A stretch of DNA of 63,865 bases, counting the filler. It is 10 parts of 10 records of this genome, joined end to end, with 100 filler letters (N's around TTAATTAATTAA, not from the genome) between each part and the next. Parts side by side here need not be neighbours in the genome. Positions count along the whole stretch, not along the records: positions 11,584 to 15,127 come from SRR15195285_1580; 9 more parts are not named here. One strand, written 5' to 3'. The notes under the pieces were generated by a model. That model was not told the origin of the DNA, ran no database searches, and saw nothing but the letters and a program-made list of their open reading frames with translations. The translations under genes were made by a program, and so were the position numbers. Within the stretch, counting starts at the first letter, position 1. Every line of letters starts with the position of its first letter. This document shows, piece after piece, positions 11,780 to 15,127 of the stretch.

Positions 11780-12890
11780 CTAGCCCAGCGCTATCCGCAG
11801 CGGCGCATGCACCAAGATGGCCAAGATGATCACAGTTGACCAATGGAACGCCTTGATCTGACCGTTGAAATTTTCAGAACCCCACATGTACCACCACTCC
11901 GCTCCGACCATCACAAACCCTACGAAGAAAAGCAAAAAGCCCAAGCCTAGCCCGACCAACGTCATATCGAGAGCAACCAACTTGGCTGACTTATCGACTG
12001 CCGTGGCCTGTTTGTAGGCCCCCGCGGTACACAACGTGCCGATTGTTGATTCTGTGACGATAATGGCCGCGTATGCCAGGTGGTGCAGAGTACTGCTCGT
12101 GACTGCGCGCCACTTGACCGTAATATCGCCAAGGGCTGGGATCATGGCATCCATGGCCAGCACGTGTTCCACCATGGCAAAGTTTGTGTGGTAGTCCGTG
12201 ATGTTGTTGAACGCGATCAGCAGCAACGCGCCTCCAATTCCTGCAGCAATAGCAGCTGGTACCAGCTGCGCAGCATCTGCTAGCAAGGTAGCGGGCAATT
12301 GGCACACCGTTGCTGCGGCTGCAATAGACGCAGCTGCGGCAAATGCGGCCGGGGCGGTTATCGTCCCAGCCGGAGGGCGACCAGCTGTAGGAACATGGGT
12401 TGGGTACGAGCTCGCTGGGCTTGACGATCGCCCTCGGGCTTTCTTGCGCGGGTGGGTGGGTGCGTCCACATGCTGTTCTGGCGAAGACAGTAGGTTCAGC
12501 CGACGTGCGAGCTTGAGGGCAGGCTCATTCGTGATAAACTCTGCAGCAGTGACCAGGTACGTGTCGCTGATTAGTAAGGCCAGCGTTCGCGAATGGACAC
12601 TGGCAGCTACGCAGCATGCAGCAGCAGGCAAGCGGTCGACAGGGCGCAGCGCCGCGCCGCGCCGCGTCGCGCCGCCGCCAGGCATCCCGCCAGCAGCACT
12701 AGTACCCAGTAGTGAACTCAGCAGTGCACTCACCAATACCAAGGGTGCTCAACAGTGTACTCAGAAGGAAGCGCGTCGGTGACAGCGGCAAGTCAAGCCA
12801 GCCAGGCACGAGAGCCAGGCATCGATCAAGCACTTCCACCCAGGCGTAGACCTGAAGCCAGACGATCACCCACACCGGAACAGTCATCAT
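11780..12890 (-). CDS. DUF2165-family integral membrane protein with N-terminal extension (2 exons: 12890-12734, 12540-11780; 305 aa)
   Basis: C-terminal AFNNITDYHTNFAMVEHVLAMD...WRAVTS..LHHLAYAAIIVTE...GFVMVGAEWWYMWGSENFNGQIKAF matches the DUF2165 pattern. The intron has a GTGAGT donor, TACTAAT branch site and TGCAG acceptor and preserves phase. Confidence 0.85.
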
Positions 12891-13193
12891 CGGCGCGAGC
12901 GAGTCGTCTGCAATCACCGCGAGATGCCGTGGAGGGTGCACCGGCGATGCGGGCTGCGCCAGGGGAGCTGGGCTGCGGATTGGCGCTGTGAACGAACCTG
13001 ACCGCGACGCCGCGCGGACGCGCTCGTAACGAAGTTTCGCCGCGCGCGCGGCGCGGCCGGTGCCCGCCGACATGGTCATGCACATGCGCGACGACTGCGC
13101 GCGAGGCAGGGCACGGCCGCGGCGCGCGGGGGGGCATCGGGATCGGATAACGTACAACCCGCGCGCGCCCGTTCCCCACAGAAAATGCGATAG

Positions 13194-14498
13194 ATGCTGA
13201 CGCCGATGGCACACGACTCCCCACCCCTGGGCGAGCTTGGTTGGAGAGGAAAGTTCCGTTCCGACTCGGCTGAAGTGCAGACGTTGCGCACTGAGCTCGC
13301 CGACAGGGGCGGCATCGCAGGTTTGGAGCTGGTCGACCCTGCCGCTCCGGAGTTTGCAGATGCCGCAGCCAGGTTGTTCCACCGCGACGGTTTCGTGCTC
13401 GTTCGCGACGCCTTGTCGCCGCAACGTGCAGCACGAATTCGCAAAGGTTGCGACACAGTAATCCGTGGGATGGTAGCACGAGATCCCGAGCGGCTTGGCA
13501 GTCGAGGGTCCCACAGATACGCGTTTGCCAACGCTCCCGCTCACTTCGGTTGCTGTGACGCCTGGGCGTGTCTCGTGGACAACCCAGTGGCACTTGCCAC
13601 ACTCGAGGCCATCTTTGGAAGCACAGAGTTCTGCTGCTCTGGATTTGGTGGCGATTTCGTGCTACCAGGTATATTCATTTTGGCTGCGAGACTGCATCAC
13701 TCATTTCTGAATCAAGTGCCAGCTCCTGAACATGCGCTCCCACCGACACCGTCGCACCGTGCGCTGTTTGCAGGAGCAACGGAGTTTCAGCATCTTCATC
13801 GCGACATGGGGGACTTTCTGCAAGACCCTACTGGGAGGCTGAACTACTTGGATCTTCCTTGTCCCCAAGTTGTCGTGAACTACCCCATGATTGTTGTGCC
13901 AGAACCGAGGGTGGTGACAACGCTCAGTGGCGCCACGAGGCAGATACCAGGCACCCAGAATTCTCGCGACCAAATTCCAACAGAGGCGGAGGAACCCGTG
14001 TGGATGAAGTGTTCCATAACAGCACCGGTTCCGTCTGGATGTGCCCTCTTTCGTGACGTCAGATGCTGGGTAACGCTTTGTTGTTTTGACGCACATAAGC
14101 AGTCGCATTGTTATGCTGCACACGTGCCTTCTGCCAGCAACCAGAATTGTTTGGCTGCATTTTGGTGATTTTCACTCCCACGATGCATGATGGGTGTTGT
14201 GCAGCACGGTGGTACTCCCAATGTGACTCTAGATGAGGTTCGGGCAATCCCATCGGCGACATACTGTGCTCCGTGGTTCGCTCCAGAGATGGCCACAGGC
14301 TATCGGCCACAGTCGCTGCCACGCAGCGTGTACAACACACTGTCTGCACGCGGGCGCGTGGTAGCTAGATTACTTGCTTGTGACGGTGAAGCACTTGAGG
14401 AGAACAAGTGGGTGCCAGACTGGGACGTGAATGCACGACAGGGCGGTGGTGGCGCAAACAACTCGCGCCACCGAGGGCAGGTCGTTTCCAGGCTCTAG
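13194..14498 (+). CDS. Phytanoyl-CoA dioxygenase (PhyH) family Fe(II)/2OG dioxygenase, 2 introns
   Basis: FHRDGFVLVRDALS, GGDFVLPG|ATEFQHLHRD (HxD), GATRQIPGT, GCALFRDVRCW|HGGTPN. Introns at about 13669-13772 and 14070-14204. Confidence 0.88.
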
Positions 14499-14541: not shown

Positions 14542-15127
14542 TCAGTAGTCATCCACCTGGGGCAGCCAAGCCGTAGCCTGCAAGTCGGCTGGAGAAGCTG
14601 TTGCTGCAGCCCAATCCGATGCAGCGAACTCATCGTGCCTATTTGCCTGGCGGCCTTCTTTCCGTTTGCGCCCAGTTTTGCCCTTGTATGCAGTGCTGTT
14701 TTGTTTCTGCTTGCTTGTGGCACCGGATCCGTAGCTACCGTCGGGTGTCTCATCAGAATCACGGTCAGGTTCACGCCGCATTAGTGAAAATTGTACAGCA
14801 TGCTGCTGATTCCCAACGCCCTGGGCTGTTCCCCCGAAAATGGAACTTGGAAGACCGCCTGTTGGCATTGTGCTGATGAGAAGCCTCCATTTGACTGTTT
14901 TGTCTGTTCCTGAAGCCGCACCTAAAACCCGTCCTTGGCGTCTACCGGTTGCCATACCAGGATACTCGAGTTGCAAAGGTGAGCCAGATTTGACGCCATT
15001 CTTGAGAAAACCTACGAGGTGAACTCCATTGCGCTCCTTCAGCTCAACCGTCACTACATCACCCTCTGATGCAATAATGGGAACCAGCGCCGCCCACGTC
15101 GCAGCAGCAGCAGCAGCAGCAGCAGCA
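14542..15127 (-). CDS. Hypothetical protein, 5'-partial (begins in poly-Ala at contig end)
   Basis: Open frame of about 195 codons from the contig end to the stop at 14542, convergent with PhyH. No recognisable motif. Confidence 0.45.
15101..15127. repeat. (GCA)9 microsatellite at contig end
   Basis: Direct reading; (TGC)n tracts also start the contigs at 15228 and 27703. Confidence 0.9.

Follow-up and report, generated by a model that had tools for sequence, protein, structure and literature searches.

A bacterial-type DUF2165 gene of a marine eukaryote, probably acquired in one ancient transfer and since furnished with an intron and an N-terminal extension

How does a gene from a family of bacterial membrane proteins come to carry a spliceosomal intron, and what has become of it in its present setting? 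The question is raised by a DUF2165 gene on the minus strand of a 3,544-bp contig (positions 11584-15127) in the window, that is, in the whole stretch of 63,865 bases analysed here. The evidence points, with good probability, to a bacterial-type DUF2165 gene of a marine eukaryote, derived from one ancient transfer, which afterward gained an intron and an N-terminal extension. This answer concerns the structure and the origin of the gene and not its biochemical function.

The course of events could be pictured as follows. A single ancient transfer from bacteria into a eukaryotic lineage would have given rise to a nuclear gene whose C-terminal 150 residues correspond to a full-length DUF2165. 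After the transfer, the gene would have taken on the codon composition of its host and gained ~150 residues at its N-terminus, namely a hydrophobic leader in a first exon of its own, then a linker that is basic and rich in Ser and Pro, then a hydrophobic stretch rich in Ala; a phase-1 GT-AG intron, 193 nt long, would now split it. At about even chances, the leader serves as a signal peptide or an anchor that routes the bacterial four-helix core into an internal membrane.

The domain, the added exon and the intron

The first question is whether the gene belongs to the family at all. The three motif blocks quoted as its signature in the original prediction are all present in the minus-strand open reading frame (ORF) 11780-12742, and the search with the profile bore this out: PF09933 matches with E 1.5e-40 and 139.2 bits, against a cut-off of 24.9, over residues 160-312 of the ORF and positions 3-154 of the 157 in the profile, which is far beyond chance. 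An alignment of 27 sequences has 11 invariant columns (N41, D44, Y45, N48, V52, V55, M58, R73, F137, W144, and W148, in the numbering of a 181-residue piece). The window protein, aligned with the 26 other members, keeps all of these together with 7 nearly invariant columns, and it has the family blocks N-N-x-T-D-Y-x-T-N-F, W-R, H-H, and E-W-x-x-M-W. The AlphaFold2 model built from the same alignment has a mean predicted local distance difference test (pLDDT) score of 93.4 and a predicted template modelling (pTM) score of 0.87, with long helices predicted at residues 12-43, 78-108, 112-144, and 156-180 and shorter helices in the loops. By every feature tested, the gene is a member of PF09933.

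How does it compare with its bacterial counterparts? Those of Hyphomicrobium (L003), Nitrosomonas (L005), and Vibrio caribbeanicus (L043), for example, which go by the description "predicted small integral membrane protein", share with it the full-length domain, the invariant residues, and the predicted helical bundle. However, the bacterial proteins have ~160-175 residues and no introns, whereas the window protein has 305 residues, a spliceosomal intron, and a eukaryotic gene context; owing to its added N-terminus, the spliced product is hence not small. Identity between the two kinds is 35-47%, and of the two only the window protein has the two-part N-terminal extension; in the 27-sequence alignment, an extension of this kind, ~150 residues long and of low complexity, is restricted to the eukaryote-like rows.

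As for the intron, the original prediction had placed one of 193 nt upstream of the domain, and its donor, branch point, and acceptor lie exactly where they had been claimed (Table 1). They are the signals of a U2-type spliceosomal intron: the branch A stands 30 nt before the 3' splice site, the intron ends are of the same kind as those of two homology-verified introns in the neighbouring PhyH-like gene, and joining 12890-12734 to 12540-11780 creates an uninterrupted frame of 305 codons. Such compatibility alone is not evidence, because with the acceptor fixed there are 36 combinations of an ATG and a GT that yield an open frame.

Table 1. Features of the DUF2165 contig, in window coordinates
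Feature	Position	Strand	Remarks
Exon 1 of the DUF2165 gene	12734-12890	-	adjacent ATGs at 12890 and 12887; 52-residue hydrophobic leader plus first base of the junction codon
Spliceosomal intron, 193 nt, phase 1	12733-12541	-	donor GTGAGT 12733-12728; TACTAAT 12576-12570; acceptor TGCAG ending at 12541
Exon 2, including stop codon	11780-12540	-	basic Ser/Pro/Ala-rich linker, then DUF2165 domain
DUF2165 (PF09933) domain, predicted membrane helix bundle	11807-12265	-	Pfam, alignment, and AlphaFold2
Spacer between the divergent DUF2165 and PhyH-like genes, 303 bp	12891-13193	.	RNA-library contigs reach 12912 and 13139
PhyH-like 2-oxoglutarate/Fe(II) dioxygenase gene	13194-14498	+	divergent; product ends SRL
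PhyH-like exons	13194-13668, 13774-14069, 14205-14498	+	alignment with ten homologues
PhyH-like introns	13669-13773 (105 nt), 14070-14204 (135 nt)	+	same alignment
Perfect hairpin, 20-nt arms and 9-nt loop	11592-11640	.	contig end beside linker; repeat, outside the gene

The comparison with relatives is more telling. A profile search returned two relatives that are 87% identical to the window protein, P0270 (379 residues) and P0310 (389 residues), both read by the gene caller as one ORF that runs from an exon-1 homologue through an intervening segment into exon 2. Between P0270 and the window, identical residues number 45/51 in the exon-1 peptide and 223/255 in exon 2, versus 14/55, with gaps, in the intervening segment. 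This segment takes up 72 codons (216 nt) in P0270 and 193 nt in the window. Because the difference of 23 nt is not a multiple of three, residues 1-62 of P0270 map to frame -3 of the window and residues 69-378 to frame -1. Conserved blocks that lie in different frames on the two sides of a fast-changing, frame-breaking spacer are, as far as sequence comparison can tell, the signature of an intron. Moreover, the unspliced exon-1 frame runs into a stop 12 codons beyond the donor, and similarity sets in at the acceptor in four lineages, the P0005 group and L001, a locus from a metagenome, starting exactly at ...GCAG/AG TTx ATC ACG (the slash marks the acceptor). The lone locus from the metagenome scan is without the region upstream of the acceptor.

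Taken with the conservation of the leader in P0270 and P0310, these comparisons support both the new hydrophobic N-terminal exon and the intron that the original prediction had described; no spliced RNA was seen, and the splicing is inferred from comparison and not from spliced reads. The gene callers behind the database entries (P0004, P0270) translate straight through the intron, and the 305-residue product is absent among the entries seen. Within the intron, a GC-rich simple stretch (12644-12675) is the site of frame-shifting indels in the near-identical strain variants P0311 and P0313; the same stretch is common to many unrelated RNA-library contigs, which diverge on both sides of it.

Where does translation begin? 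The Met of P0270 is aligned with ATG 12887, and the ten residues ahead of the P0310 Met are only 5/10 identical to the window, on account of which the start codon is most likely ATG 12887 or 12890. The ATGs at 13085, 13079, and 13073, which share the exon-1 frame, may be alternative starts. The Kyte-Doolittle hydropathy of the exon-1 leader peaks at 1.58 over residues 3-21. The hydrophobic leader, the basic Ser/Pro/Ala-rich linker, and the Ala-rich hydrophobic stretch look like targeting or anchoring parts.

RNA libraries offer a further view of the gene. The contig, or part of it, is present in 19 public runs from 17 studies, nearly all of them seawater or marine metagenomes, and six of these runs are RNA libraries. 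Four of the latter were aligned to the contig, as low-depth assembled contigs and not as raw reads. Exon 2 is covered at 11819-12323, 12208-12450, 11885-12070, 12144-12301, and 12037-12303, the last by a contig from an oligo-dT library with 0 differences to the window, and exon 1 at 12734-12912 and 12689-12878. One contig from run X16 starts exactly at 12734, the last base of exon 1; this fits a branch of the assembly graph at the splice site and is a single, weak hint of splicing. The spacer upstream of exon 1 presumably holds the 5' untranslated regions of the two divergent genes and a shared promoter.

Bacterial ancestry and eukaryotic setting

From where was the domain acquired? In a collection with one genome per prokaryote species, at least 588 of the 600 pattern-matched stretches encode DUF2165 relatives. 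The best 80 of these are 35-47% identical to the window protein and come from Alpha-, Beta-, and Gammaproteobacteria, Cyanobacteria, Actinomycetota, Acidobacteriota, and Verrucomicrobiota, with a few Bacillota records. In a representative library there are 751 relatives at E<=1e-3, and identities above 46% are found only in eukaryote-like ones, short fragments aside. Named eukaryotic proteins are absent from the hits of two word-indexed searches covering NCBI, UniRef, and EukProt entries, and viral relatives are 0 among the 4 pattern matches in IMG/VR.

Phylogenies were built with bacterial sequences and six eukaryote-like rows, namely the window, P0005, P0006, P0007, P0008, and the spliced L001. 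In a quick tree of 133 rows, the six form one clade with a value of 99 in the Shimodaira-Hasegawa-like approximate likelihood ratio test (SH-aLRT). The careful tree of 95 rows, which leaves out two rows with long branches and odd composition as well as 36/79 bacterial rows, and for which the bootstrap is not fully settled, again unites the six with support 100/100; the stem of their clade, set among the bacterial rows, measures 1.35 changes per column. Its sister consists of P0048, P0053, and Vibrio caribbeanicus L043 (90/93), so that a marine gammaproteobacterium is a candidate donor, as a lead only. The clade already splits deeply in two, with the P0008 group at 53-60% identity and all others at 78-93%, and the transfer is therefore not recent. 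A single origin of the eukaryote-like copies, as well as their bacterial ancestry, is supported by these comparisons.

Another question is whether the contig is eukaryotic, and here the neighbouring gene, which encodes a PhyH-like dioxygenase, is informative. Its first intron (GTATAT...TTGCAG) would be read as a block of 35 residues that is absent in 10/10 homologues, and its removal restores LPG/ATEFQHLHRD (the slash marks the joint). After RDVRCW the ORF meets an in-frame TGA where 7/10 homologues go on with H-GGTPN, and the window encodes H-GGTPN 135 nt downstream, past GTAACG...GTGCAG; the 68% relative P0179 breaks at the same RDVRCW point. Because the removal of these introns restores conserved blocks, the contig carries spliceosomal introns, as had been suggested earlier for this neighbour.

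The DUF2165 domain itself is interrupted in a relative. In L001, which is 70-97% identical per segment, three GT-AG introns lie inside the domain; among all nearby GT/AG combinations there is one frame-restoring solution, with exons 77-499, 613-822, 935-1020, and 1271-1327, and the frame is kept over the four exons. In the window, the G+C fraction at third codon positions (GC3) is 0.68 in the DUF2165 domain and 0.67 in exon 1, compared with 0.53-0.78 in the other genes, and the codon composition of the gene is thus host-like. On the strength of the neighbour's two introns, the three in-domain introns of L001, and the host-like GC3, bacterial contamination of the contig is effectively excluded. 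The original prediction had likewise held the gene to be a domesticated horizontal transfer rather than contamination, and both halves of that claim hold up, the first on the bacterial relatives at 35-47% identity, the one nested clade, the GC3, and the introns.

Genes that passed from a bacterium to a protist and later gained introns and targeting leaders are a well-documented kind, and the window gene is a typical, fairly ordinary example of a gene of bacterial origin that has become established in a protist. It shares with them a bacterial domain, a host-like composition, introns acquired after the transfer, and an N-terminal addition from a new exon. It differs in that the literature search, outside of which lay supplementary lists of horizontal gene transfers, brought up no account of DUF2165 in eukaryotes. 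Among about 8.4 million papers, five mention DUF2165, three of them on bacteria, one on a database of Cys in DUFs, and one on repeats of P. aeruginosa, and no occurrence of PF09933, COG5472, or IPR018681 was found. With this gene, DUF2165, an uncharacterised family, joins the bacterial genes that have become fixed in a eukaryote of the sea; the finding opens no long-standing question.

Outside the main eukaryote-like clade, the metagenome sequences P0023/P0047 and P0021 end in unrelated residues after the conserved blocks (..EWFAMC/SRRGG.. and ..EWFYMW/CVAIL.., the slash marking the change) and also carry long N-terminal extensions. Their endings look like read-through into introns, and they may be further eukaryotic copies, possibly separate acquisitions.

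Weighing the alternatives

Several observations weigh against the account given above, and it is fair to set them together. A search for RNA across the 12734/12540 junction had been proposed as a check; it was run, and a spliced joint was found in 0/4 RNA-library runs, the parts that these contigs leave uncovered being uninformative. Contigs of run X14 pass unspliced across both the acceptor (12466-12637) and the donor (12689-12878), although the RNA libraries may contain DNA or pre-mRNA. In the P0005 and L001 groups an in-frame Met lies five codons ahead of the acceptor, and exon 1 is possibly unused in some lineages. On the side of ancestry, the trees are unrooted, the sister of the eukaryote-like clade is unstable (an interim tree of the same rows gives P0023/P0047 at 78), and the eukaryote-like relatives are environmental sequences without a taxon name. 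The contig is only 3.5 kb long within a chain of unplaced contigs, so that its connection with the other contigs is presumed. As for function, there is no conserved neighbour at 79 bacterial DUF2165 loci, the commonest being present in 9/79, all of one related group, and fold searches give no specific match, generic helical bundles only.

What other histories could the gene have had? One of them dispenses with a free-living bacterial donor: the family would be an old, vertically inherited eukaryotic one, or it would have come by endosymbiotic transfer from the ancestor of plastids. The presence of at least two deep lineages in the clade would suit such an age, cyanobacterial members do exist (L009, L032, and L049), and an unrooted tree leaves room for it. 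However, in the careful tree the sister of the clade is not cyanobacterial, a single long stem carries the clade within a broad bacterial radiation, and the word-indexed searches described above met no named eukaryotic protein. All in all, this history is quite unlikely.

Another possibility is that there is no intron, and that translation starts at ATG 12685 or in an unrecognised upstream exon, the exon-1 ORF being an untranslated leader. The exon-2 frame is indeed open across the entire 193 nt, upstream of exon 2 there is no in-frame ATG but 12685, and the unspliced X14 contigs, the failure to see a joint, the Met of the P0005 and L001 lineages, and the three ATGs ahead of exon 1 in its own frame can all be cited in favour. 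Yet in P0311 and P0313 this ATG falls in a frame-shifted stretch, and no other Met is left ahead of exon 2. The low identity of the intervening segment to P0270, between flanks at 88% and 87%, and its change in length by a number that is not a multiple of three are hard to reconcile with coding sequence, and the poor match of the ten residues ahead of the P0310 Met speaks against a start farther upstream. An intron-less gene is distinctly improbable.

Could the gene be a decaying, functionless relic of a transfer? A gene of unestablished function and unproven expression could be one. On the other side, the frame is intact over 305 codons, with all 11 family-invariant residues kept; it is also maintained in relatives at 78-93% identity and across the four exons of L001, and contigs of four RNA libraries hold the exon. 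A relic is very improbable.

Finally, a bacterial contaminant with a chance GT...AG pair in place of an intron is scarcely credible: the family is overwhelmingly bacterial, the contig is short and unplaced, 36 ATG and GT combinations fit the acceptor by chance, and the neighbour's nearest named homologues are bacterial at ~40% identity, but GT-AG introns cure both the in-frame TGA and the 35-residue block of that neighbour, L001 has its three introns inside the domain, the 150-residue low-complexity N-terminal extension occurs in eukaryote-like rows only, and the best bacterial identity among the matches listed is 47%.

Function, the neighbouring gene and the rest of the contig

If the gene is a bacterial acquisition that its host has kept, what does its product do? 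To our knowledge, no function has been assigned to DUF2165. By the positive-inside rule, basic residues mark the cytoplasmic side of a membrane protein, and in DUF2165 they are found at the bacterial N-terminus and in the loop between helices 2 and 3. Alignment and model place the conserved polar residues at one end of the bundle, namely at the end of helix 1 (NN.TDY.TNF), the start of helix 2 (HH), the end of helix 3 (EW..MW), and the start of helix 4. Because of the basic N-terminus and 2-3 loop, this polar end should, in the predicted model, face away from the cytoplasm. That these residues bind a small molecule, hydrophobic or redox-active, or else a metal, at a putative site on the non-cytoplasmic membrane surface is a doubtful, if conceivable, proposal.

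Two reports give hints from bacteria. In one, three genera have a bacterial DUF2165 gene next to a cluster for a phenazine antibiotic (PMC11350110); in the other, such a gene lies in a cluster that quorum sensing induces and that also encodes an AfsA-like enzyme, efflux pumps, and a MarR regulator (PMC12114271).

Other resources were consulted as well. NCBIfam has no model for the window DUF2165 protein, and the ESM Atlas returns bacterial DUF2165 clusters only, at 0.86, under the 0.9 level. Foldseek against the PDB gives 0 matches at E<=1e-3; the best are 5vtl (E 0.17) and 9h9e_B, a chain of the DoxX-like NACHO (E 0.58, prob 0.84). In a wide search with VIA-align, the best Z was 10.4, under the ~13 needed for helical proteins, and all candidates were generic four-helix bundles. 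No functional analogy is adopted from these model-based comparisons.

The PhyH-like neighbour has 92 homologues, with E down to 1e-128, many of which carry a precomputed PF05721. The raw ORF scores 19.6 bits against the PF05721 cut-off of 22, and single exons score 16.9 bits or nothing; a PDB sequence search found nothing below E 0.15. The nearest named homologues are bacterial (Actinomycetota, Ilumatobacteraceae, and proteins of metagenome-assembled genomes of Pseudomonadales) at 34-42% identity, with E down to 1e-48, and this gene, too, may be of bacterial ancestry. A C-terminal extension in its last exon (..WVPDWDV..GGGG..) is common to the eukaryote-like relatives and absent in the bacterial homologues. 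The relatives end in SRL, ARL, or AKL, which we take to resemble the peroxisomal PTS1 signal.

Do the two genes belong together? A PhyH gene is present in 0/79 bacterial DUF2165 loci, and the pair is therefore not a bacterial operon. To judge from sizes only, the head-to-head arrangement is seemingly kept in relatives, with partner proteins on equal-sized contigs of 3764, 3631, 7471, and 6581 nt. One might then read the pair as a conserved two-gene module, built in the eukaryote rather than inherited as an operon, given the same absence of PhyH from the bacterial loci, and with the nearest named relatives of both members bacterial. The exon-1 leader and the C-terminal SRL would route the products to the same organelle, where they would process a small lipophilic compound, and in sister lineages the pair would now be under invasion by an active intron-generating element. 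This joint reading is a long shot; if true, the module and the invading element would provide a time series, laid out by nature, of introns being gained by a gene that began intron-less.

The intron-generating element of that reading goes back to an observation in relatives. From its first base (GTGCGAAAA...) onward, intron 1 of the L001 DUF2165 gene (L001:500-612) shows homology to an intron that is read through in the PhyH relative P0180, with 20/31 identical residues and E 1e-10 (tblastn) against the C-terminal tail of the latter. The C-terminal tails of two more PhyH relatives, P0010 and P0011, are listed alongside P0180 for shared intron sequence. The presence of the same intron sequence in two genes that are not related has the look of an element of the introner type. 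Introner elements are described as intron-generating transposons of marine protists (bioRxiv 10.1101/2022.06.06.494994 = PMC9860276). The likeness to these elements is one intron sequence in two unrelated genes of the relatives (DUF2165 in L001, PhyH in P0180); the difference is that here there are two gene contexts only and that the element is absent from the window, where it has 0 matches. The window's three introns share with the element, or with one another, only matches of 8-9 nt (E 0.25-1.0).

For the preferred history, that of a bacterial gene later split by introns, such cases have a particular use. Because the DUF2165 domain certainly began intron-less, every intron within it is a dated gain; there are none in the window gene and three in L001, one of them sharing its sequence with an intron of another gene, which makes for a small, clean case of recent intron gain.

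What surrounds the gene is soon told. The window consists of ten short contigs of 3.1-15.6 kb each, with a G+C content of 0.53-0.61, joined by nine identical linkers of the form N44-TTAATTAATTAA-N44. Since the linkers join unplaced contigs, the neighbours of the DUF2165 contig across 11484-11583 and 15128-15227 are artefacts of concatenation, and true adjacency to the gene holds only within its own contig, rightwards to 15127. The other contigs hold plainly eukaryotic genes, such as the one for the proteasome subunit RPN2, which the ESM Atlas confirms as a eukaryotic gene, without giving a lineage. A second copy of DUF2165 was not found within the window by tblastn with the domain.

At the left end of the contig, the two arms of the hairpin are perfectly complementary, with 0 such structures expected by chance. 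RNA-library contigs cover it to a depth of 228-246 and flank it with many different sequences, and because of this depth and variety it is read as a widespread repeat, the probable reason for the break of the assembly at this end. Rfam gives 0 matches on the 3,544-bp contig, hairpin included, at E<=0.1. At the right end lies a third ORF on the minus strand (14542-15127) without a Pfam match at E<=0.01, which ends at the contig edge within a GCA/GCT (poly-Ala) repeat and is covered by contigs from two RNA libraries.

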